64,000 nucleotides of DNA. It comes from a bacterium. Lineage in GTDB: Bacteria > Bacteroidota > Ignavibacteria > UBA10030. The stretch covers positions 128,001 through 192,000 of the forward strand of contig JAZDJN010000087.1 in the NCBI GenBank assembly GCA_043803945.1, read 5' to 3'. Positions within the stretch are counted from its first letter, which is position 1. Every line of letters begins with the position of its first letter. The notes beneath the pieces are model-generated. The model saw nothing but the letters and a program-made list of their open reading frames with translations. It made no database searches and was not told the DNA's origin. A program made the translations under genes and the position numbers. This document shows positions 1,548 through 33,898 of the stretch, piece by piece.

Positions 1548-1643
1548 GGGGATGAATGAGGACCTGGTGGCCTTCGCGGACTTCAAATCCGTTGTCCCGC
1601 CCCGAGAGGGGTGGGAGGTGGGTTCGATTCCTACCCGTCCCCG
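1548..1643 (+). tRNA. selC: tRNA-Sec (anticodon UCA)
   Basis: Acceptor stem GGGGATGA/CCGTCCCC with discriminator G; long D-stem with TGGT loop; anticodon arm GCGGA-CT TCA AA-TCCGT (TCA at 1583-1585); 9-bp variable arm TCCCGCCCC-GAGA-GGGGTGGGA; T arm GTGGG-TTCGATT-CCTAC; CCA not encoded. Confidence 0.95.
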
Positions 1644-1707
1644 CTAAGATTACTCTGCGATGGGACGAGGCTCGTCCGCCGAAGGCGAGACGGCCCGTCC
1701 CCGCTAA
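1634..1707. repeat. 14-bp direct repeat of the tRNA-Sec 3' end flanking a 46-nt palindromic segment
   Basis: CCCGTCCCCGCTAA at 1634-1647 and again at 1694-1707. Confidence 0.75.
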
Positions 1708-18266: not shown

Positions 18267-18354
18267 GGCTCGACCATAGACGACCGTATCTCCATCGTCA
18301 TGGCCGTTTATTGAAGTGCGCCGTATTACAAACCCCCTTCCAGCACACCGAAAC

Positions 18355-18386
18355 GGGGACAAGCTCAAACGCTTGAATTTGTCCCC
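18355..18386. repeat. GGGGACAA...TTGTCCCC palindromic element (copy 2)
   Basis: GGGGACAAGCTCAA-acgc-TTGAATTTGTCCCC. Confidence 0.55.
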
Positions 18387-18436
18387 TTCTTTTTGTTCTT
18401 TTATACAGAACAAGTTGGTTATTCCTCTCTCCCTCA

Positions 18437-18667
18437 ATGAAAAACAAACTCATCGATACCGTTCTTGTCCTTGTCTACATTACTGCCCTCTTCTCTATAG
18501 GTTTTTCTTTTTCGAGTTGTGTCTCTTCCGAACTTGCTCTCCAAATGGAAACCTCGGTCAACTGTCCGTTAATGAAGAATCTTCAGGACAACGACGAAGA
18601 TCTCTTTCAAATTGAAGACGGCATTGGCGCCGTTGGGGAGGCCTCAGCCTGCCCCACGTGAGGGTAG
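18437..18667 (+). CDS. Small DUF4266-like lipoprotein, predicted selenoprotein ending C-P-T-U-G (76 aa, Sec75)
   Basis: Lipobox FSSC; TGC CCC ACG TGA GGG TAG at 18650-18667; SECIS-like hairpin starting 11 nt after the TGA; lies upstream of a DUF3570-like barrel and a TlpA. Confidence 0.75.
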
Positions 18668-18671
18668 GTCC

Positions 18672-18691
18672 TATGTTTCAGGTGAAACATA
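18672..18691 (+). promoter_or_regulatory. SECIS-like hairpin for TGA 18659
   Basis: Perfect 8-bp stem TATGTTTC-AGGT-GAAACATA, loop at +19; the stem contains the likely ATG (18673) of the next gene. Confidence 0.75.
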
Positions 18692-19707
18692 CGAATACTA
18701 TCTCTCGAGTTCGCATCCTCTTCGGAGTGCTGGTTGCGGCTATACTGTTCTCTCCCTCACCTGTTACTGCGCAAGGATATGACGATGCTTTCGAAATGAG
18801 AAGCAAGCTCAAGGTAGAGGTACAATATGCCGACTATGGGGAGTACGAATACCCTGAGCCAATCCTTTACCAGTATGGTCTCTCACCCTATCAACAACGT
18901 TATCCTTACATCGTCAATTTTCCTGAGCGGCGGGGACTCATCAAATTCAGCAGATTGGTGAGTAGTGAGACGGTTCTTGGATTCAAATATCAATTCTCCG
19001 ATCTCCGTGAAGATGTCAAGCAGCATCTCTTCGAAACAAAACTGACGAAAACACTGGATATCGGAATTATCGGTATAGCTGCGGCACAGCTTCTTCGTGA
19101 TTCCCGGGGATTTTCTGCGGTTCAATACGGAACAGGAATAAGCTGGGAGCCAAACGCAATCACATTGTTCCAGGGAGACATCCAGTATTATTATCGAGGA
19201 GATGCTGCTAGTAGTGTGGGCGGAAGATTAGGAACTGCCAATGCACGTTTGAAGTTCAGACAAGTCTTAACGCTTTCAACCGCCCTGCAAGCCGAGTATA
19301 GTTTCTATAACGCAGCGGGCAACTCGTTGAAGTTCAACTCGCAGAGCCTGGCACTGTGGCTCAGCCAATTTTTCAAGACACAAACAGCTATTCATGTCAA
19401 TGGCCGGTTCTATACAAACACGATGGGCATTCAATCCTTCTCCCCCTCTCTGGAAATTGCTCAATATATCGACTGGGCGACCGTTCTCTGGCTGAAGTTC
19501 CGGTACTATACAAACGAGAGCAGGAATGTCTCCTTCGGTGAGCAGGGTGTCTATATCCCCAACGGTTTAAGATCGACCTCGGTGAGCGCGCAGGTAAATC
19601 ATGAACTAACTCCCTCTCTGCTGGTTTACGGGAAATATCGGTACTACAAGAGTAACCTAAACATCCAGATGAATACCTATCTCACTGGATTGGTCTATTC
19701 CTTTTAG
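18673..19707 (+). CDS. DUF3570-like outer-membrane beta-barrel
   Basis: Signal peptide; C-terminal Phe (LVYSF); RFYTNTMGIQSFSPSLE...FRYYTNES resembles the recalled DUF3570 pattern RYYxDxWGIxSHT...YRYYxQ. Confidence 0.65.
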   Translation: MFQVKHTNTISRVRILFGVLVAAILFSPSPVTAQGYDDAFEMRSKLKVEVQYADYGEYEYPEPILYQYGLSPYQQRYPYIVNFPERRGLIKFSRLVSSETVLGFKYQFSDLREDVKQHLFETKLTKTLDIGIIGIAAAQLLRDSRGFSAVQYGTGISWEPNAITLFQGDIQYYYRGDAASSVGGRLGTANARLKFRQVLTLSTALQAEYSFYNAAGNSLKFNSQSLALWLSQFFKTQTAIHVNGRFYTNTMGIQSFSPSLEIAQYIDWATVLWLKFRYYTNESRNVSFGEQGVYIPNGLRSTSVSAQVNHELTPSLLVYGKYRYYKSNLNIQMNTYLTGLVYSF

Positions 19708-19836
19708 ACCACTGATTATCGCTGATTAACACTGATTATCACTGAGAAAAGTAAGTAGGTTGAGATCTTGTTCGAAGAAATAGCAAATAGAATCTTTGTC
19801 TGCGTTCGGGGCTGACTAAAAAGAGAACTCGCGGAC

Positions 19837-19985
19837 TGTCATTCCGGCAATCTTCTAGCCGCCTGCCTGACGAAGTGTTCGTCACGCAGGCAGGGAATCC
19901 AGACAAAGGCTAAATCAATACACTGGACACCGGATTGAAGTTCCGCTGTACGGGATGCCGTAAAGCGGCACATTCCGGTGTGACG
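19837..19985. repeat. Nested REP-like palindromic element
   Basis: TGTCATTCCGG...GGAATCCAG...CTGGACACCGG...CATTCCGGTGTGAC, with an inserted CCTGCC-TGACGAA..TTCGTCA-CGCAGGCAGG hairpin; related copy near 49600-49686. Confidence 0.6.
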
Positions 19986-20051
19986 CGTCATTTCTTTTTA
20001 GACGACCCCAAATTGGCGTGCCATCGGTGGAGAATTTACTTAATTACAGCA

Positions 20052-20825
20052 ATGAACAGAACTCGCGCTATAGGATTGTTGCTCTTTCTTCTCTCCTGGT
20101 TCTTGCTGCAGCAGTGCGGCGAGGCTCCTCCGACAATTCCGGAACTGTTTACCGGATCGCTTAAAATAACGGCATCTGATCCGGCAATCAAATCTCTGGC
20201 AATCGACCTTGACGACATAAAGCTTGGTCTCTTTCCGAATCCGGCATTGGTATCAGATCTTACAATCGGCACTCATAAACTTCTGGTCACCGGAGACAAT
20301 AAGGCTTCATCAGTACTACTCGTAACCATCGCACGAAATCAGCAAACCAATATTGTTCTCGAATTGCTGGCCGAAGGTGCGTTTCTAGGACAGAAAGCTC
20401 CAGATTTTGCTGTGACGACTATCCTGAATGAGCGATTCTCCCTTGAGTCGCAGAAAGGCAAAGTGGTGCTTCTTGCCTTTTTTGAACATACCTGACTGGA
20501 GTGCATTCAGGCGGAGTTGCCGTCTGTGCAATGGGTTGTCGGAGCAGCATTCTCGCCCGAGCAGTTGACGATATTGGGCGTGAATACTACATCCTCAACT
20601 GAGTGGTTGTTGAATTATCGCACCCAGTCGGGTATCACATTCCCATTCGCGTACGATCAGAAGAGCGAATTGTTTACCAAGTACAAAATCGGCGGAACGT
20701 ATGGATACTATCCGCCGACGTATATCATCATCGATCAGAACGGTATTGTCCGGTACAGAATTGACAACACCTTTAAACGAGCAGTGGAAATGGCAACTTG
20801 CATAAAAGGATTACTCACAAACTAA
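20052..20825 (+). CDS. Lipoprotein with PEGA-like domain and TlpA/AhpC-TSA thioredoxin domain; selenoprotein with UxxC (257 aa, Sec148)
   Basis: ORFs 19935..20495 and 20517..20825 are in frame; KAPDF...KGKVVLLAFFEHT-TGA-LECIQAELP puts TGA at the first Cys of the CxxC. Confidence 0.9.
20502..20530 (+). promoter_or_regulatory. SECIS-like hairpin for TGA 20493
   Basis: TGCA-tt-CAGGCGG-AGTTG-CCGTCTG-TGCA; loop at +20 with G in position 2. Confidence 0.8.
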
Positions 20826-20851
20826 CCAAGGCAAACCTTGATGGAGGCGCT

Positions 20852-23161
20852 ATGAAAACGAAAGTGAGTATTATAATTCTGCTGATCCCGGTGATGATTG
20901 TGTCACAGAGCAAATCTTGGGAAGCGATGGGTCCAGAGGGGGGAAGAATTGCTGCGTTCGCCCAGGATCCTCAAAACGGCGCCATCTTGTACACAACAAC
21001 CTATGGATATCCCAGCAAAATCTTTAAGTCTTCAACTCACGGACAACAATGGAACGTGGTTGGATCGATCAACGATTATATCAGTGGATTTGCTATTGAT
21101 CCACGTATAAGCGCAATCATCTATGTGTTCTCCTCGAGCCGGCTCTATCGAAGCACAAATGGCGGGCAGATCTGGTCATCGATTCCGTTGCCGGCGAATT
21201 ATTACCTCTATGACATTTGCCTCGATCCGATAAAATCCAACACGATTCATGCAAGCGGCTATCATTACGTCTCCGGCACAACATACCAGTCGTACGTCGC
21301 TTATCTGAACAGCACGAACGCCGGTGCATCCTGGACAACAAACGATATTCTGCTGACGTTGAGCTACAATGAGGGATATGGGCGAGCCATCGCTGTCGAT
21401 AGTTCTGATAATCAAACAATCCTCATTGGGGGTTACGTCTATGTACTCTCTGGCAGTTTGTACAACGGATATGGCAAACTCCTTCGCAGCACAAACAGCG
21501 GCGTTAGTTTTTCCGACGTGACACCATCGGGTTCAGGGTATTTCTACGATGTTGCTATCGATCCGAAAAATTCCGGGAAGGCCTACGCAGCATCGTCGGG
21601 TGGTGTCTATCGAACAACAGACAAGGGATTAACCTGGCTGCGGAATAATGGTTTTGTGGGCATCTGTTACTATCTTTCCCTCGATAAGGCGAATCCCAAT
21701 AACCTTCTCGCTCAATCATACGGCCAACTCTACCGGAGCACTGACGCTGGAATCAACTGGCTTCAATCACTTACGACCGGGTCGGGGTATTCGGGGATCA
21801 TCATGGAGAACTCTCCATCGCAGTACATGTTTTATGCCAACGACGCCGGCATTTTCCAATCCAGCAACCGCGGCAACACCTGGGAACCCTGCAATCGCGG
21901 TATTACCTCTGCAAATATCACCTCACTGTATACTCCATCTTCCTCGATGCCAATCCTGTATGCAGGATTCCAATACAATACAGTATTCAAAACCACGGCT
22001 GCAACTAACCCGTCGGTATCGTGGCAGATGCTGGATCGATTTTACACATGCACCAATATCAACGCAATACTCTCATTGCCGGAAGATCCGAACAAGCTTT
22101 ATGCTCTGGAGGGCGGCGGCTGAGGTAACTCTGGGCTCTATATGAGCACAAACGGCGGCGCCGCTTGGAAACAACTCAACCAGACGCTTGATGAAGGATA
22201 CGCAGTTGTCACTGTCCCCGGAAGTGTTTTTACCGGAGGATGTCTTGTCGATAGTGCGCTTTCAAAGATGGCTGTTATCAAACTCACCATTGATGGTACG
22301 CTAACCAACACATCGATCCTGAGTTCTGAAGCCGGTGAGGTGAAGGCCATGGCTGTCCATCCCATAAATTCTTCTATCGTGTATGCGGGTGGAACCTATC
22401 GTGATATTTCATACTATAACTGCAGTCGATTATATAAAACGATAAATGGCGGAAGCAGTTGGTTTGAAATCGGTAAAACTAGTTTCAACATCAAAAACGA
22501 TGGAGTGTACGGTCTCTGTGTCGATCCATCGAATCCGGCTAAACTTCTTGCCGCAACAAACCTTGGTGTTCTTGTCAGTGAAAACGAGGGTACGACATGG
22601 AGCTCGGCAGCGCAGAAATTAAATTGCACCTCGCTTCTCCCCGACCCTTTAACGCCCAACCGGTATTTTCTCGGAACAAGAACCGGCGTCTATATCAGCA
22701 TTGATGGCGGGAAGTCCTGGCAGCAACTCGGGGGCCAATTAACTGCAACACCGGTTCTCTCGCTCGCTTATGATAAAATAGCAAAGGTCCTTTATGCCGG
22801 GACAGAAGGGCAGGGTGTTTACCGCTATAGCCTCTCGACAACAAATGTTGCTTCAGCACCCTTTGATGTGCCCGACGAATTTGCGCTGTACCAGAATTAT
22901 CCCAACCCGTTTAATCCATTGACAATAATCGATTTTCAATTGCCGATTACCACAATGGTGACACTTAGTGTTTTTGACCTTCTCGGCCGCGAGGTGGCAA
23001 TACTGGTGAATGAAGAAAAAACGGCGGGAAGGTACTCCGTTTCATGGAATGCATCGAACACTCCGAGCGGTATTTATTTTTACAGACTGTTGACCGGCGA
23101 CGCCAACCATGAACCAAGGGCAAGTCTCTGTCAGACAAAAAGAATGATCATCCTGAGATAA
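20852..23161 (+). CDS. Secreted BNR/Asp-box beta-propeller selenoprotein with T9SS-type tail (769 aa, Sec424)
   Basis: ORFs ending 22123 and starting 22142 are in frame: LYALEGGG-TGA-GNSGLYMSTNGG completes one blade; signal peptide only in the first half, QNYPNPFNP only in the second. Confidence 0.85.
22135..22167 (+). promoter_or_regulatory. Conserved double-hairpin candidate SECIS for TGA 22121
   Basis: GCTC-TATAT-GAGC then CAAACGGC-GGC-GCCGCTTG; same structure follows TGA 29121 and TGA 33188. Confidence 0.65.
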
Positions 23162-23211
23162 TTTTTCGAATCTACTGTCTCTTCAAGCAGGACTATTATC
23201 GGACGGAAAGT

Positions 23212-24084
23212 TTGAGTACCTTGCTTTTATCCTATCACTTTGCAGCGACAATGATCCTTGCCCCAATGACTCCCTTACTGGCACAGCGACTCTGTGCTGC
23301 ACTTCACTGCAGCCTCCCCACAAAAAAAATGGTCGACGATATTTATCGGGCTGCACCAGTAAAACTTGCACCGCAGCCTATCCCCCCCAGCGGTGCCATG
23401 ATAACGGTGCCCGTGTTTGCCGCTCATAATGATTCGGTGCGACAATAACGCTCTGCTTCATTATCACAATTTCCCCTGGGTGTTCTGATAGGCGGAACAA
23501 AGAAGGATGTAATTATCTCAAACAGAATTTATACCAACCTAAAAATAAATGTCCCCAAGCCGGTCGTGATTTATGGATGGCATAAGCTCGATGGAACACC
23601 GATACAACCCGTCTATAACGGCCACGAGCAGACCTACGCCGATTACAGCCATGGCATTCGCCTTGTGAAGGATACCGTGCTGGTTGATGGTATCCCGAGA
23701 TTTCTCTCTTCGGTGCTTGCTGATCCGGTGTATCATCTTCTCTTGAGCGACGAAGGAATCATTTCCATTCCCTATTACACTTTATCTACCCATGTATTAC
23801 CCGAAGAGGTTCCACCGCCCTATCAATTTCAACTCCATCAAAACTATCCAAATCCATTCAACCCAATTACAACAATCTGTTTTACTGTGTCATCTTCTGG
23901 TAAGTATCAGCTCAGGGTGTACACCTTAACAGGAAAGGAAGTTAGCGTACTTGAATATCAGGAGTTGTATGCGGGTAATCAGACGGTTCGGTATGATGCT
24001 CGTGATCTGCCCTCGGGAACATATTTCTACAAATTAGAGAGCAAGAACGGTGCACTCATCAGAAAAATGACGCTGGTGAAATGA
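23212..24084 (+). pseudogene. Disrupted secreted protein with T9SS-type tail (5' truncated, in-frame TAA at 23446)
   Basis: ORFs 23212..23448 and 23566..24084 share a frame and read as one domain across the TAA (..HNDSVRQ*RSASLSQFPLGVLIGGTKKD..IYGWH..IQP..H..YADYSHGIRLV); no signal peptide. Confidence 0.65.
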
Positions 24085-27007: not shown

Positions 27008-27514
27008 ATGGTCCGTCCAAATATCAGAACTCTAGCAACCCTGTTTATTCTTTTCGTTGTACCATCGTTGATCTCCCATGCACAGGAAGGCCTCAAAGCA
27101 GGAATGAAAGCACCAGACTTCGAGCTCTCCGACATTAACGGAAACAAGGTTTCTCTCTCTTCCTTCCTCAATAAAAACATCGTCGTCATTCACTTCTGGA
27201 AATCGAAGTGAAGAGAATGCCAGGCGGAGTTTCCGTCTCTCATCGATCTGCAGGAAGAAATTAAAGAAGTAAAAGTCCTCTCCATCAACACCATTGACAT
27301 GGCGAGAAGGGTACAGTCCGATGCCAGAGCTTTCGGCCTCCCCTTCGATGTCCTTGTCGGCAGGGATTCGAACATCCTTACCGTTTACAAAGTCACAAAA
27401 CTCCCCCGGGTGCTTATTGTCGGAAAGAAGGGGACTGTTGTCTTCACCGAAAAGTTTGCCTCCTATGAAAAGCTCAAAGAAGAAGTTGAAAAAGCATTGA
27501 AGAAGGGATTATAG
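27008..27514 (+). CDS. Exported TlpA/AhpC-TSA thioredoxin-like selenoprotein with UxxC (168 aa, Sec68)
   Basis: ORFs 27008..27211 and 27299..27514 are in frame; KAPDFEL...VVIHFWKSK-TGA-RECQAEFP...LPR (cis-Pro loop). Confidence 0.9.
27222..27238 (+). promoter_or_regulatory. SECIS-like hairpin for TGA 27209
   Basis: AGGCGG-AGTTT-CCGTCT, nearly identical to the hairpin at 20509-20525; loop at +17. Confidence 0.8.
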
Positions 27515-27815: not shown

Positions 27816-29852
27816 ATGAATCTCATCACCAGAAGAATTTCAGGGTGCATCGTTTTGATGTTCCTGTTTTGCGGGCTCCTTTTCTGTCAGAAAGCTCAAT
27901 GGGAGTCTCTCGGTCCCGACGGCGGTATGATTCAAAGCCTCCTCAAAGATCCGGGTAATGGTAACATTCTTTACTGTGCCGCTCAGGGGAAACCATACCG
28001 CATCTTCCGCTCGACAGACGGAGGGAACCACTGGTCGCAGGTTTCGAAGATCGACGATCAAGTGCTCGCCTTTGGGAATCATCCCACAGTGAAATCGATG
28101 CTCTATGTGCTCGCCTACAAAGTGAGCACAGACAATACACGACCGACACGGGAGAACACACTCTACATCAGCACGGATGGCGGAACAAGCTGGCTGACTA
28201 AAGAGCTTCCGGAGCAGACATTTATTTCAAAGATTGCTCTTGATCCGGTAAGCCCGACAATTATCCACGCAATGGGATTGCTGCAGCCGGATTATAAGCG
28301 GGCATACTTTAAAAGCACGGATGAGGGAAAGAGCTGGACTCAAACCATCATTGCATCGGGGCGTGGTTCTGCAAGCGTCCTTGGAATCGATCCAAAGAAT
28401 CCCAACATCATCTATGTCGGCGGTTATACCCTGAATGATTCCAACAAACTCGTGCCCGCATTCTATAAGAGTGTCGATGGCGGAGCACATTTCGAGCAGA
28501 TGTCCCTGAAGATCACCACTCCCGCAGTTGCCATCATTTCAGATATTGCCATCGACCCCACGGCCTCCGGCAGGCTCTTCATTTCAATTTCCAATGCCGT
28601 CTATCGAAGCACCAACGGCGGCGAATCATGGGAAAAGAACAGCAGTACAATCCTCGCAGTGCAGCGGCTCTGGCTCGACCCGAATGATTCGAACCATCTC
28701 TTTGCCGCAACTTCTCCGGGGATTATCGAGAGCAAGGATGGCGGCGTAACGTGGAAATCGCTCACCGGCAAATATCCCGGCCGAACAACGAATGGTCTCA
28801 TGTTCAAGTCAAAGCCAATGCCCACGGTGCTTGTTACCAACTCCTCCGGTATCTGGCGAACGGTGGATGGAGGAAAAACATGGAAGTCAAGCCACAGTGG
28901 CATTCTCGGTACAACGGTCACGGCGTTAAGTATCGCCCCATCGTCACCGAACATTTTATATTCCGATGTAAAGTTCAATGCGCTCTATAAAACAACAGTC
29001 GCTGCAAAACCAACTGTTGTATGGAAACAGCTTCCGGTTTTCTATACGTGTACAGAGTTAAGCAGCCTGATGATCTCGGAGAAAGATCCCGATAAAATCA
29101 TCGCCCTCGAAGGCGGTGGCTGAGGAAACTCAGGGCTCTTTGTGAGCACAGACGGCGGCGCCGTTTGGAACGAACAGGATAAGACACTTGATGACGGATT
29201 TGCACTTGCATTGGGATCGGCCCTCTATCAGGCGGGCAGTTGGAAACCGGATCCGAAGAATACGCTGATTCGAATGGCGGTCTTTAAGAGTTCTGACAAG
29301 GGCGAAACCTGGCAGCATAAAACACTCAGCGACAGCGCAGGGGTGGTCAAGGCGCTGGTGGTTCACCCTACAAACAAGAACATTCTCTTTGCCGGCGGGA
29401 CAGTCTGGTGGAACCGGTTTATGAAAAACGCTGTCACTAAAAGCGTTCTCTACGCTACTCAGGACGCTGGAGAAACCTGGATAGAAATCGAAGGATTGAA
29501 CGGCAAGTCGGATTGTATTAACGGCCTTGTCTTTGAACCAGGCAATCCTAATCGACTGCTTGCTGCCATGAACAATGGTGTTGCCATCAGCGAAGATGGA
29601 GGAAAGATATGGAAGCTGCCATCGCAGCAGGTAGCGGCACTTTGTATTGTTGCCGACCAGCTTCAAAAAGGGCGCTTTTTCATTGGCGGCCCGAAGGGTG
29701 CCTGGAGGAGCGATGACGGCGGAATCACGTGGAAAGAACTCAATGAGGGCTTGACCATTCGCTCGATTCTCTGTCTGACATATGATTCGAAAAATTCGAT
29801 ACTGTATGCCGGCACTGAAAGCGGCGGCACAGTACGGTTGCACCTGAAATAA
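27816..29852 (+). CDS. Exported BNR beta-propeller selenoprotein (678 aa, Sec436)
   Basis: In-frame ORF pair; FYTC...IIALEGGG-TGA-GNSGLFVSTDGG; AAGGAG RBS and signal peptide. Confidence 0.85.
29135..29167 (+). promoter_or_regulatory. Double-hairpin candidate SECIS for TGA 29121
   Basis: GCTC-TTTGT-GAGC then CAGACGGC-GGC-GCCGTTTG (8 pairs). Confidence 0.7.
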
Positions 29853-30134
29853 CCCGATATGGTCGGGAGCAGACTTGTCCCGACGTTTTTGTCGGGAGCT
29901 CCCTCCCAGATACCGAACCGTTCTCTCCTTCCGGTGTTCATAGAGAAGGGAACGGTTCGTTTCGTACTATCGCTTTACAGTAATCAAGAGACTTCGTACA
30001 TTGTACTTGCCTGCCGGGAGAATGTGGGGAAGGTTCGGGCTGCGCGATGTGTAACGCACATCGCGCGATCATCAACACGTTCAGGACATCGTTCTCACAT
30101 GTTTATTCCACACAGCACAATCAGAGAGGTACAA

Positions 30135-31769
30135 ATGAAACCGTTCATTGTTGCTCTTGCTCTTCTTTTTGCGTTCTCCCTCCGCGCACAGGAAACGATC
30201 ATCACCGGCACACTGCTTGGTTATGACGGCAAACCGATGCAGATGACAAACATTCATCTTCAAAAACCGGGACAAAAACCAAAAGAAACTGTCCGGGCAG
30301 AGAAGGATGGTTCGTTCAAACTGATCGTTAAGGATACCGGCATTGTTCTTATCAAGTTTGCCGGACTCTTTCATCTGTCGGAAGATATTCCCTTTCTCAT
30401 CAAGCAACCGTCTACCATCAAGCTTTCGCTTCAGTTAGGGACATACCATTGCAATAAAAAACCACTAGACCCAAAGATTCTTGGAAGTTTTAATAATTGG
30501 AACTTATCGAAGCCTTTCGACCTGAAAGAAGAAAAGGATGGGACATATTCCGCGGAATTTGAAACAGCAGAAAAGGAATTTTCCTATCAGGTTCAGGGTT
30601 TTGAATCAACCGGTCGAACCGTTAACGGTACGCTTTCCGAACGGTATGAATACGACGGCGACGGTGATTATCGATCGATTGTGACACCAAAGGATGGAAA
30701 GATAAAAATTGTTTTTGATCCCTCTAAGGTTCTTGTCTCTTCCGCCCTGCCAAAACTCCAATTCGACGATCCCGGAAGCCGTGCGGCTCGCTATAGCACT
30801 TACCGCTTCGATGTCCTACGGTTGATACGGGAACGCTCATGGGCTCTCCTCGACTTTATTAACTCCGGAGGTGAGTCTAAAGACTTCAAGTTCGACAAGG
30901 ATTATTCGTCTGAGATGACCGCCTGCGCACAAGAAATAAAGAAGGAGAGTGATCCGCTGCTTCGTGATTTACTCTTTTTAAAATATTTTTACTACCCGCC
31001 TGAGAAAGGAGATATTGAAATTGCCAGACTCTACTTGAAGGTACTTCCCGACTTAATGAAACATCAACCTAGCGCGGGTGAGATCTCAGTTTTCTCTTCA
31101 CTTCTCTCGATCGGTAAAATGATGCAGTATAACGATGAATACATGAGCTCCTTTTTCGAGATCATTGATAATTCCAAAAGTGCAATTCTAAATTACAATT
31201 TGATCAATAATGTAATGAGAAATTTGAAGACACAGAACGATGCTGCGGCAGTAAAAGCATTCTACACGAAAGCGTTGGAAAAACTGGAAGGCACATCGTG
31301 GCTAAGGTCTTTCAAACAGCAATATGCTCCGAAAGCAGTAATTGCCGCAGGCGAAGCGGTTCCCTCTTTCTTAGTCAAGTCGCTGGAAGACAATACAAAA
31401 ATCTACACCAATCAAACAATGAAAGGCAAAGTGTACCTGGTACACTTCTGGGCGTCATGGTCCGAACCATCGTTGAAAGAGATGGAGAATCTTCACAAAA
31501 CGTATGAACAGTACAAAACAAAGAACTTTGAAATTCTCAGTCTCTCAGTTGATGCTTCACCGGAAGAGGGAACAGCGTTTCGTAAAAAGAAATGGGCGAT
31601 GCCCTGGCTCCATGCCTTTGCATCGACGGAGAAGAATTTGTTGGCCGACTTTGGGGTGCTTGCACCGCCAAAATTGATACTGATCGATACAAAGGGGATT
31701 GTCGTCGCAATGGACGCAGAGCTTCAGGGTGCAGCGTTGGGACAAACGCTTGCTCGTATTCTAAAATGA
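30135..31769 (+). CDS. Exported protein with C-terminal TlpA-like domain lacking both active-site cysteines
   Basis: GAGG RBS then MKPFIVAL signal; KGKVYLVHFWASWSEPSLKEM in place of WASWCxPC. Confidence 0.85.
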   Translation: MKPFIVALALLFAFSLRAQETIITGTLLGYDGKPMQMTNIHLQKPGQKPKETVRAEKDGSFKLIVKDTGIVLIKFAGLFHLSEDIPFLIKQPSTIKLSLQLGTYHCNKKPLDPKILGSFNNWNLSKPFDLKEEKDGTYSAEFETAEKEFSYQVQGFESTGRTVNGTLSERYEYDGDGDYRSIVTPKDGKIKIVFDPSKVLVSSALPKLQFDDPGSRAARYSTYRFDVLRLIRERSWALLDFINSGGESKDFKFDKDYSSEMTACAQEIKKESDPLLRDLLFLKYFYYPPEKGDIEIARLYLKVLPDLMKHQPSAGEISVFSSLLSIGKMMQYNDEYMSSFFEIIDNSKSAILNYNLINNVMRNLKTQNDAAAVKAFYTKALEKLEGTSWLRSFKQQYAPKAVIAAGEAVPSFLVKSLEDNTKIYTNQTMKGKVYLVHFWASWSEPSLKEMENLHKTYEQYKTKNFEILSLSVDASPEEGTAFRKKKWAMPWLHAFASTEKNLLADFGVLAPPKLILIDTKGIVVAMDAELQGAALGQTLARILK

Positions 31770-31840: not shown

Positions 31841-33898
31841 ATGAACCTTAACTCACGTATGATCTTCCCGGCGATTGTGCTGCTTCTCCTTCTGCCGCTG
31901 CTGCTGGCCGGGCAAACCCGCCTGCCATTGAAGACCACTTCAAGCGGGCAGGGCGGAACGTGGGAGCCAATTGGACCTGAAGGAGGAAGTATGACTGCAC
32001 TCATTCAGGATCCGGGAAATGCACTGACGCTCTATGCTGCAGCCTCGGGAAATCCATGCCGAATCTACAAATCGGTCGACTTCGGCAAGAAATGGTCGCT
32101 TGTATCGATCATCGATAACAACATCCTTGGCCTCGGCTTCCACCCTCTCAAAAAATCGCTGCTCTACGCCTATTCAAGTACCTCCAATTACGATTCATCG
32201 GATCCGCTGGAGCAGTCCAAATTAAAAGCACCTCTGCTTTACACAAGTGCAGATGGCGGAAAGACATGGACATCAAAGGCCCTTCCTCCATTGTATTCCG
32301 TGTCGAAAATTCAATTCGATCCTGTGAATTCATCGACCATCCATGCACTTGCTTCTTCAACCGGGCTTGCGGGAAGTGTCTACCTCAAGAGCACCAATGA
32401 CGGCGAGACGTGGAATGTGACTGTGATTCTCAACGAACAGTCGTACGCTTCAGCAATGGATGTTGATCCTGATGATCCCAACCACATCATCATCGGAGCA
32501 TACAGTTACTCATTCACCACAACAACCAATGTCCTCTATGAAAGCACAGATGGCGGGAGCCATTTCTCTCCGATCACTTTGAAAAACAGATCGATCTCTC
32601 CTCCCAATGATATTATGTTCGGCCCCAAGGGCTCCAGGTTGGTATTCTTTTCGATGTATGGAGGAATCTATAAAAGTACCGACCGTGGAAAGAACTGGGA
32701 GAAGAACAAGGGAACCATCGATCTGGCACAACGGATATGGATGAATCCTACAAATGCAAATCACATGGTTGGGACACAGTATCGCGGCTTAATGCAAAGC
32801 GAAGATGGCGGCGTAACGTGGAAAACGGCTCCTGGAAAATTACTGGGTAATGTTTCCGACGGACTGATTGTCGGAGCGGGAACCAAGCCGGAAATTCTCA
32901 TCACCACTTCGGCAGGGATTTTCCGAACAGCGGATTATGGAAAGAGCTGGAAGGCAAGCCATAAGGGAATTGTTGCCACTCAGGTGATGTCGCTGCGTGT
33001 CGCGCCTTCGTCAACTTCTACACTGTTTGCTGCTCTGATGTCAAATGCTGTATATAAGACAAAAGCCGCTGCGGCTGGAACTGTCGGCTGGGAGCAGTTG
33101 CCGGTATTTTATACCTGTGTCAACATCAACGACATCCTCATCGACGAGAAGGACCCGAATAAAATTCTGGCCCTCGAAGGGGGCGGCTGAGGAAACTCAG
33201 GGCTCTTTATGAGCACAAGTGGCGGCGCCACTTGGAAAGAGATTGATAAAACGATGGACGATGGTTATGCACTGGCCCATGGTTCTTTCTATGCTGTGGG
33301 ATGTATGCTCGACGCAGCAACGCAGTCGAGAAAGATGGTTATCTATAAGAGTGTTGATGATGGAAAAACCTGGAAGAAGAATACGCTGGGCGACAAAGAA
33401 GGTTACCTGAAAGCCATTGCTGTGCATCCATCCGACAAGAACATTCTCCTTGCCGGCGGGCAATGCACGGTGCGCGATGGTATTCAGAGCAAGTTGTATA
33501 AAAGTACCAATGCCGGGGAAACCTGGAATGAGATACTTGCCATGGAAATTTCAAAGAACTCTATCACCGCGCTGCAGTATGATCCATTAAAGCCGGAGCG
33601 TGTACTCGCTGCAACACGAACCGGACTGTTCCTCAGCGAAGATGGGGCATCGTCATGGTCGAAGGCGAAGGAGAATATCGCTGTAACATCGTTGGTGGCC
33701 GATGCCAAAAAGCCCGGGCGCTTCTTTGCCGGAACACCAAAAGGTGTGCTGGCCAGCGAGGATGGCGGAAAATCCTGGAGCGAAATGAATAAGGGCTTGA
33801 CGGTAAAATCTGTGCTGTGCCTGGAGTTTGATTCAAAGAATTCTATTCTCTACGCAGGCACCAGCAATGGCGGCGTGATGAGGATGAATCTGAAGTAA
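31841..33898 (+). CDS. Exported BNR beta-propeller selenoprotein (685 aa, Sec450)
   Basis: In-frame ORF pair; FYTC...ILALEGGG-TGA-GNSGLFMSTSGG; GGAGGT RBS and signal peptide. Confidence 0.85.
33202..33234 (+). promoter_or_regulatory. Double-hairpin candidate SECIS for TGA 33188
   Basis: GCTC-TTTAT-GAGC then CAAGTGGC-GGC-GCCACTTG (8 Watson-Crick pairs). Confidence 0.7.

Follow-up and report, generated by a model that had tools for sequence, protein, structure and literature searches.

As the article text of Meheust et al. (2021, eLife 10:e66878, PMC8238504) describes it, ApbE flavinylates DUF3570 proteins at [S/T]GA[S/T] motifs, and the CXC tail of the accompanying DUF4266 proteins is proposed to cycle between redox states. 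According to the same text, clusters of DUF4266 and DUF3570 genes number in the hundreds, and NapH-like proteins are one transmembrane electron-transfer class among flavinylated systems. Here, we analyze a gene cluster that appears to be a selenium-dependent relative of these systems. It lies in a 64,000-nucleotide (nt) stretch of DNA, hereafter the window, from a bacterium of the class Ignavibacteria (GenBank assembly GCA_043803945.1, contig JAZDJN010000087.1, positions 128,001 to 192,000). An earlier note, made from the letters of the window alone, had proposed that positions 18437-20825 encode a selenium version of the DUF4266/DUF3570/thioredoxin set, in which the small lipoprotein ends with a penultimate selenocysteine (Sec) residue.

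Mammalian thioredoxin reductase (TXNRD), a cytosolic flavoenzyme, has a C-terminal Gly-Cys-Sec-Gly arm. In E. coli, a selenocysteine insertion sequence (SECIS) put after the stop codon supports incorporation of a penultimate Sec, as described in the article text of PMC11431864. The bacterial protein SaoC has, in 3 of 52 members, a Cys-Sec ending encoded with UGA-UAG and followed by a hairpin, as given in the preprint text of Haft and Gwadz (bioRxiv 2022). As far as the article texts go, the canonical DUF4266/DUF3570 system, UxxC TlpA-like selenoproteins and terminal Sec with a post-stop hairpin (SaoC and the “star” families) are already published. In the same literature, neither a DUF4266-like lipoprotein with a Sec tail, nor a DUF3570 branch that lacks flavin and is linked to Sec, nor a propeller with Sec was found; supplementary tables, which lay outside the scope of the search, could list this family under another name. 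The words lipoprotein, BNR, sortilin and propeller occur 0 times in the text of a 2026 review (PMC13188914), and a literature search with CPTUG, CPTU and PTUG gave unrelated papers among the best 10 of 626 matches.

The UGA codon of the small lipoprotein gene

Re-reading of coordinates and translations placed the three genes of 18437-20825 where the earlier note had put them: a small lipoprotein gene is followed by an outer-membrane β-barrel gene and by a gene for a UxxC TlpA-like lipoprotein, all on the forward strand. The small lipoprotein gene (18437-18667; 76 codons followed by TAG) was classified as divergent DUF4266-like from its translation, homologues and alignment. Its product begins with MKNKLIDTVLVLVYITALFSIGFSFSSC and has a signal peptide that closes with the lipobox-like sequence FSSC, which leaves a mature protein of about 49 residues with a flexible, acidic and glycine-rich tail. 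The translation ends with EDGIGAVGEASACPT, followed by TGA (18659-18661), GGG and TAG (18665-18667), so that, with TGA read as Sec, the C-terminus is GEASACPT-Sec-Gly.

Barrel alignments were used to fetch 81 loci, 15 from genomes and 66 from metagenomes, with some contigs counted twice. A homologue of the small lipoprotein is located directly upstream of the barrel gene in 71 of these loci, the gap to the barrel start being 5 nt in the window. The earlier note had named homologues that end at CPT with other stop codons as evidence that would speak against Sec; the codon that follows Cys-Pro-Thr is TGA in 71/71 small genes. The true stop, on the other hand, varies (TAG, TAA or TGA) and stands 0 or 1 codon later in all loci except one. 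Two types can be distinguished. In type A, where barrels are 51-64% identical to that of the window, TGA is followed by GGN and then by TAG, TGA or TAA; in type B, with barrels 26-49% identical to that of the window, TAG, TAA or TGA follows at once. The two types are joined by synteny, by alignment and by the common CPTU tail. At L128:439, the sole locus where the frame runs on past CPT-TGA, 13 further codons are present (KVGDRQDGDSDAQ).

All 30 database homologues of the small lipoprotein end at CPT, i.e., they were truncated by gene callers. None of the 30 has a CPTC ending, and no Cys form of the small lipoprotein was seen. Out of the ten loci that have no small gene, three (L114, L127 and L129) have less than 200 nt of upstream sequence and two (L101 and L112) showed nothing; the remaining five are considered below.

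An invariant TGA next to a true stop that differs between loci is the hallmark of recoding. Judging by these comparisons, the UGA of the small gene is very probably a genuine Sec codon. The CxxU-G tail with penultimate Sec that the earlier note had proposed is supported by the invariant TGA, the varying true stop, the co-varying hairpin, the Sec machinery on the contig and the profile links to DUF4266 and DUF3570.

A SECIS-like hairpin past the stop codon

A SECIS-like hairpin with a 7-8 bp stem and the loop AGGU is found past the stop codon (18672-18691, forward strand); its core, AUGUUUC-AGGU-GAAACAU, occupies positions 18673-18690, downstream of the TGA, and its 5′ arm includes the barrel ATG. 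A stem of at least 5 bp whose loop begins at a distance of 17-27 nt from the UGA (counted from its U) is present in 61 of 64 unique downstream segments versus 34% of shuffles. Over the 64 segments, the hairpins have 36 different 5′ arms and loops that are mostly AGGU, GAU, GGUC, GGAC or AGUU. In 13 aligned loci, compensatory changes were detected in four of the seven base pairs, and none of 500 shuffles matched the observed covariation score.

In type B loci, the small gene ends ~15 to ~380 nt (mostly tens to hundreds) before the barrel match, and the hairpin still trails the TGA. This spacing indicates that, in type B, the hairpin belongs with the UGA and not with the barrel start. A second hairpin, of the same geometry, follows the TGA of the TlpA-like gene (20508-20526, forward strand; 7 bp, loop AGUUG). 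Here, too, four of seven pairs are compensatory, and the covariation score was reached in 0 of 500 shuffles.

Relationship to DUF4266 and DUF3570

The earlier note had stated as background that DUF4266 lipoproteins ending with GGGCGCN occur together with DUF3570 barrels and often with ApbE. A same-phylum comparison set, made up of 25 canonical DUF3570 loci, agrees with this: a lipoprotein ending with GGGCGC(N/G/AK) is located directly upstream of the barrel in 22 loci, all 14 of the canonical small lipoproteins that were tested match Pfam DUF4266 (up to 85 bits), and ApbE is encoded within 1.5-kb flanks in 18 of the 25.

For the Sec-tailed proteins, the relationship was assessed at the profile level. 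The mature part of the type B proteins aligned with DUF4266 (PF14086) in hhalign with a probability of 94.1% (E 1.3e-7, score 36.4, 45 columns); the maximum score in 100 column shuffles was 16.1. The alignment spans the lipid Cys and a common D-P-I-M motif, and extends up to the first Cys of the tail. An initial hhalign match to DUF4266 with a probability of 95% was rejected, being carried by the signal peptide and the lipobox; the mature parts of the small alignments gave 9.5%. NCBIfam 20.0 gave no match at E ≤ 1 for the small protein.

The barrel gene (18673-19707, forward strand) encodes a protein of 344 residues with a signal peptide and a C-terminal Phe, which we assign, from profiles and an AlphaFold2 model, to DUF3570-like outer-membrane barrels without flavinylation motifs. 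The model has 16 strands, with a predicted local distance difference test score (pLDDT) of 83.4 and a predicted template modelling score of 0.75. A Foldseek search with the model retrieved generic outer-membrane barrels alone (top match 4y25, E 6.2e-9). Out of 25 barrel relatives, 22 match Pfam DUF3570 at E ≤ 1 (best 5.3e-6), and any other barrel family is matched by at most three. The barrel profile aligned with DUF3570 members in hhalign with a probability of 97.85% (E 6.7e-13, 249 columns), and a phmmer search reached a true DUF3570 protein, P0102, with E 3.8e-5. The absence of any similarity to DUF4266 or DUF3570 had been named beforehand as a result that would speak against the assignment; profile similarity to both families was found.

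What sets these barrels apart is the lack of the flavin attachment apparatus. The [ST]GA[ST] motif is present in none of 25 barrels of the Sec branch versus 8 of 13 canonical barrels, and the profile alignment with DUF3570 places the loop that bears the motif within a deletion in the Sec-branch barrels. No ApbE was found in the 81 Sec-branch loci (378 kb in total), to be compared with the 18 of 25 canonical loci given above. The earlier observation that no apbE is visible in the window also stands, the sole ApbE match of the genome being on another contig, C38. A DsbD homologue was likewise not found in the 81 loci, and the two DsbD genes of the genome are located on other contigs. Taken together, these comparisons make it very probable that the cluster is related to the DUF4266/DUF3570 module and does without flavin.

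Conservation within the barrel family is highest at residues 34-91 (18772-18945), which read QGYDD.FE..K.KVE.QYADYGEYEYPEP...PYI.NFPE.R. Tyr and acidic residues abound here, and pLDDT falls below 50 at residues 28-37, 57-68 and 70-76. This stretch could be a partner- or ligand-binding segment.

The barrel family is small. A large protein collection contains 78 homologues, three of which bear a precomputed PF12094 label, and only 25 representative clusters at E ≤ 0.001 were retrieved among 1.84 billion representatives. A sequence search of the genomes of the 40 nearest relatives gave no convincing match to the small protein or to the barrel. As judged by such searches, the module is patchy within its taxonomic family.

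Exported thioredoxin-fold selenoproteins and propellers

The core gene order over the loci is small gene, barrel gene, TlpA-like gene and second thioredoxin gene; a propeller gene is inserted in type A alone. The TlpA/ResA-like thioredoxin-fold lipoprotein (20052-20825, forward strand) has an LLQQC lipobox and the active site T-U-L-E-C, the TGA at 20493-20495 standing in FFEHT-TGA-LEC. In Pfam, the protein matches AhpC-TSA with 65.5 bits (cut-off 26) and Redoxin with 41.1 bits (cut-off 26.6). All 48 loci in which the T-U-x-x-C motif could be aligned have TGA as its active-site codon. The second exported thioredoxin-like selenoprotein is encoded at 27008-27514 (forward strand; HFWKSK-U-REC, TGA at 27209-27211). 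In other loci it is a core member of the cluster, and in the window it is found 4 kb downstream; its (W/M)-(K/E)-x-x-U-x-x-C motif has TGA in 32 of 32 aligned loci.

The accessory BNR/Sortilin-type propeller of type A loci is encoded in the window at 20852-23161 (forward strand) and contains EGGG-U-G, with the TGA at 22121-22123; the TGA is kept in 15 of 17 aligned loci. It is one of three paralogues on the forward strand (20852-23161, 27816-29852 and 31841-33898), each of which contains ALEGGG-TGA-GNSGL (TGA at 22121, 29121 and 33188), and the only one of the three with a type IX secretion system (T9SS) sorting tail. By their sequences, the Sec propellers look like an undescribed family of exported or secreted selenoproteins. 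A large exported protein encoded at 29853-31769 (forward strand) has a C-terminal thioredoxin/Redoxin domain with the active site WASWSEPS; since both cysteines are lost, this domain is probably redox-dead.

The spacer between the barrel gene and the TlpA-like gene (19708-20051) is 345 nt long, whereas most of the type A loci have about 15-160 nt at this place. The spacer of the window opens with three CTGATTA-type repeats and may be a small insertion. In a scan for promoters and terminators, sites were no more numerous than in shuffled sequences.

Sec machinery and wider gene context

Genes for Sec synthesis and insertion are located on the same contig. ARAGORN identified a tRNA-Sec with the anticodon tca at 1548-1644 (forward strand) of the window, and selD (324 bits), selB (377 bits) and selA (594 bits), all over the NCBIfam cut-offs, are found 6-12 kb before the first base of the window. 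The selD of the contig itself contains Sec, and its TGA is present in 14 of 14 aligned loci. In 18 of the 81 loci, many of which have short flanks, selD is located upstream of the module (TIGR00476, 335.6 bits versus a cut-off of 125).

Downstream of the module, 11 loci encode a membrane iron-sulfur protein that resembles NapH/MauN (E 1e-17 to 1e-20, which does not reach the curated cut-off), and a GltD-like NAD(P)H oxidoreductase often precedes the NapH-like protein or is fused to it. On the genome contig C87, outside of the window, a NapH-like gene (115252-116355; 48% identical) is located immediately upstream of selA. Ahead of it, in the same reading frame, stands a short hydrophobic peptide, TLULDCIGIGU, which includes two in-frame TGAs. 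This arrangement recurs in L123 and L030, where GLULECIGVGU and a NapH-like protein trail the module. An identification of the short Sec peptide that adjoins the NapH-like gene as TsoA (LULAXC) was unsupported, the only NCBIfam match being a weak one to the CD1871A CXXC family.

Type B loci contain, upstream of the module, T9SS-sorted FG-GAP proteins, some of which, encoded directly before it, have an in-frame TGA in GPYD-U-CHG (L030:1927-3531; L031, L125 and L139). The T9SS-sorted FG-GAP protein encoded upstream in the window has no Sec. Another T9SS-sorted protein, at L123:685-3030, bears CPG-U-GGG.

Interpretation and alternative explanations

What the comparison of loci shows, within the limits of prediction from sequence, is a recoded UGA with its hairpin, homology to DUF4266 and DUF3570, a flavin apparatus that has been lost, thioredoxin partners in which Sec is obligate, and export signals on all members. 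The explanation that accounts best for the whole is a selenium-dependent, flavin-free branch of the DUF4266/DUF3570/thioredoxin systems that operates as an electron relay; taken in its entirety, we consider it reasonably likely. On the comparative sequence evidence, the UGA is decoded as Sec with the aid of a SelB-binding hairpin past the true stop, which overlaps the start of the barrel gene. The barrel is distantly related to DUF3570 and no longer has the loops in which the ApbE flavinylation motifs reside. The two exported UxxC thioredoxins would hold the CxxU tail reduced via thiol/selenol exchange (selenylsulfide reduction), and the tail would act at or inside the barrel, standing in for the covalent flavin of canonical systems. 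Electrons may enter from the cytoplasm via the NapH-like protein, together with the GltD-like NAD(P)H oxidoreductase in many loci, and their sink would be at the outer membrane or the cell surface, possibly in the T9SS-secreted selenoproteins encoded alongside. For the mechanism itself, i.e., thiol/selenol electron transfer at the outer membrane, the chances appear about even.

Several observations weigh against this explanation. The hairpin of the window, taken as a single fold, is unremarkable (z −1.88; 13 of 200 shuffles fold equally well), no stem of at least 5 bp is present in 3 of the 64 downstream segments, and an Rfam search over 18300-23300 gave no match at E ≤ 10. The type A hairpin overlaps the barrel start codon, and therefore it may also, or instead, serve translational coupling. 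The barrel of the window remains under the Pfam threshold for DUF3570 (PF12094; 12.7 bits versus a cut-off of 25, E 0.056), and no Pfam match at E ≤ 1 was obtained for the small protein of the window or for four of its relatives. The type A proteins, to which the small protein of the window belongs, align weakly with DUF4266 (63.8%, E 6.6e-5, 22 columns), so the family link runs via the sister subtype B. The spacing of the tail is CxxU (C-P-T-U-G in type A, C-P-T-U in type B) and not the canonical CxC. Finally, in five loci (L025, L027, L028, L091 and L092) selD is located directly before the barrel gene and both Sec thioredoxins are present, with no small gene in the available flank; it follows that the barrel can apparently work without the small gene or that the gene lies elsewhere.

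A more far-reaching form of the relay is tentative and, in our opinion, rather unlikely. According to it, the lipid-anchored CxxU tail would thread into or through the flavin-less barrel as a selenol “wire” and bring reducing equivalents, drawn from NAD(P)H via the GltD-like protein, the NapH-like protein and the two UxxC thioredoxins, to T9SS-secreted selenoenzymes on the surface, for which there would otherwise be no extracellular reductant. In type A, these enzymes would correspond to the EGGGUG propellers and, in type B, to the GPYDUCHG FG-GAP proteins. If true, this would be a new protein-only, selenium-based electron route across an outer membrane. The earlier note had suggested that electrons could flow to the adjacent propeller; the propeller is limited to one subtype, type A.

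The module might instead serve selenium acquisition. The barrel would then admit a selenium species, and the exported Sec/Cys proteins would reduce it and carry it, bound to the CxxU tail in a selenotrisulfide- or selenopersulfide-type form, to be passed on for selenophosphate synthesis by SelD. The gene context has features that fit: a bona fide selD upstream of the module in the 18 loci mentioned above, a NapH-like partner that adjoins selA in the genome of the window and in L123, and the location of the whole set within ~30 kb of selA, selB, selD and tRNA-Sec. Selenoprotein genes, however, often cluster with sel genes through mere dependence. The loci showed no importer of selenium for the inner membrane, uptake that itself needs four selenoproteins poses a bootstrap problem, and the canonical Cys/flavin relatives are without a known link to selenium (the words selenium, selenocysteine and selenoprotein do not occur in the article text of PMC8238504). 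We regard acquisition as improbable.

Binding of a soft metal or metalloid is a further alternative, and a quite improbable one. The CxxU tail would be a ligand for Hg, As, Cu, Te or similar elements, which the module would bind, detoxify or transport at the outer membrane. Small lipoproteins with terminal CC or CU, e.g., SaoC, have been proposed to be metal handlers in the preprint text of Haft and Gwadz (bioRxiv 2022), and the text of PMC13188914 connects many of the recently discovered selenoproteins of bacteria with resistance to metals or metalloids. Yet no mer, ars, cop or P-type ATPase genes were seen in the annotated loci, and the constant partners are two thioredoxin-fold oxidoreductases and NapH-/GltD-like proteins, which argues for redox turnover.

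An ordinary stop, with the protein ending at CPT as every gene caller has it and with the hairpin and the GAGG-like bases just coupling barrel translation to the small gene, would fit the type A hairpin that sequesters the barrel ATG and the type A TGAGGG that could double as a Shine-Dalgarno-like site 9 nt before that ATG, but it can practically be dismissed, since TGA is retained in every small gene though the barrels are only 26-63% identical, while the second stop varies; since an immediate second in-frame stop is needless for normal termination; since the type B hairpin holds its distance from the TGA, with the barrel match mostly tens to hundreds of nt beyond; since the TGA stands 1-2 residues away from where the canonical CGC tail has its second Cys; and since every other redox gene of the cluster also has an invariant TGA.

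With the Sec relay as the preferred explanation, loss of flavin and ApbE together with invariant Sec argues that the tail residue is a reactive catalytic redox center rather than a structural or lipidation feature. The cluster adds an unrecognized selenoprotein family, whose small member is cut short in 30/30 database entries, and it suggests that Ignavibacteria-like bacteria put the Sec trait to use in large part for selenoproteins that are extracytoplasmic or secreted.

Comparison with known systems

The resemblance to the TXNRD arm consists of a penultimate Sec followed by Gly, a flexible C-terminal arm and a nearby Cys able to form a selenylsulfide. In the small lipoprotein, Cys and Sec are two residues apart, whereas they are adjacent in TXNRD, and the protein is a 49-residue lipopeptide without a flavin domain. 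The likeness lies in position (Sec-Gly-COOH) and does not reflect homology. A SECIS after the stop codon, which was engineered for TXNRD in E. coli (article text of PMC11431864), occurs naturally here, and the putative SECIS of the small gene can be viewed as the natural counterpart of that trick for expressing the mammalian enzyme.

With SaoC and with the “star” families (KCU-star and UXX-star, as named in a table of PMC13188914), the small gene shares a UGA followed at once, or almost at once, by the true stop, and a hairpin in the untranslated region. Like SaoC, which is mostly lipidated according to the preprint text, the product is a small exported protein. Unlike in SaoC, where Sec is rare and Cys predominates, Sec is invariant here, and NCBIfam 20.0 reveals no sequence relation between the two. 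The partners differ as well, being an outer-membrane barrel here versus an ABC transporter or MerB-like enzymes for SaoC, as far as the preprint text describes them.

The two thioredoxins are similar to the UxxC TlpA/ResA-like selenoproteins (“UGC-containing TlpA”, WAxxUGC, in the text of PMC13188914) in that they have a thioredoxin fold, are exported or lipid-anchored, and have Sec first in the CxxC motif. They differ from the UxxC families listed there by their motifs, T-U-x-x-C and K-U-R-E-C, and by the invariance of Sec, and no curated NCBIfam model passes its cut-off. In addition, the first, TlpA-like, protein has an extra N-terminal domain of ~85 residues.

The closest match is the DsbD-type flavinylation cluster of the PMC8238504 text (ApbE, DUF3570 PF12094, a thioredoxin-like protein and DUF4266 PF14086), with which the Sec branch shares the order of small lipoprotein, barrel and exported thioredoxin-fold protein, as well as an entirely extracytoplasmic set of products. 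The small protein is also built like DUF4266: the lipid Cys is followed by a motif resembling N/S-D-P-I-M, and a spacer leads to a Gly-rich tail whose extreme C-terminus holds two redox residues. The Sec branch differs in having C-P-T-U(-G) in place of C-G-C and in lacking the [S/T]GA[S/T] motif and a nearby ApbE. It has two TlpA/ResA-type UxxC thioredoxins where the canonical cluster, according to the same text, has a PF13899 thioredoxin, and it has no nearby DsbD, with NapH-/GltD-like genes present in 11 loci instead. Linkage to sel genes and to T9SS-secreted selenoproteins is a further distinguishing feature of the Sec branch. The Sec branch can be viewed as a natural experiment that has done away with ApbE and covalent flavin, and in which Sec invariably replaces the second tail Cys and occupies both thioredoxin sites. 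As such, it offers a direct biochemical handle on both branches of the widespread DUF4266/DUF3570 system.

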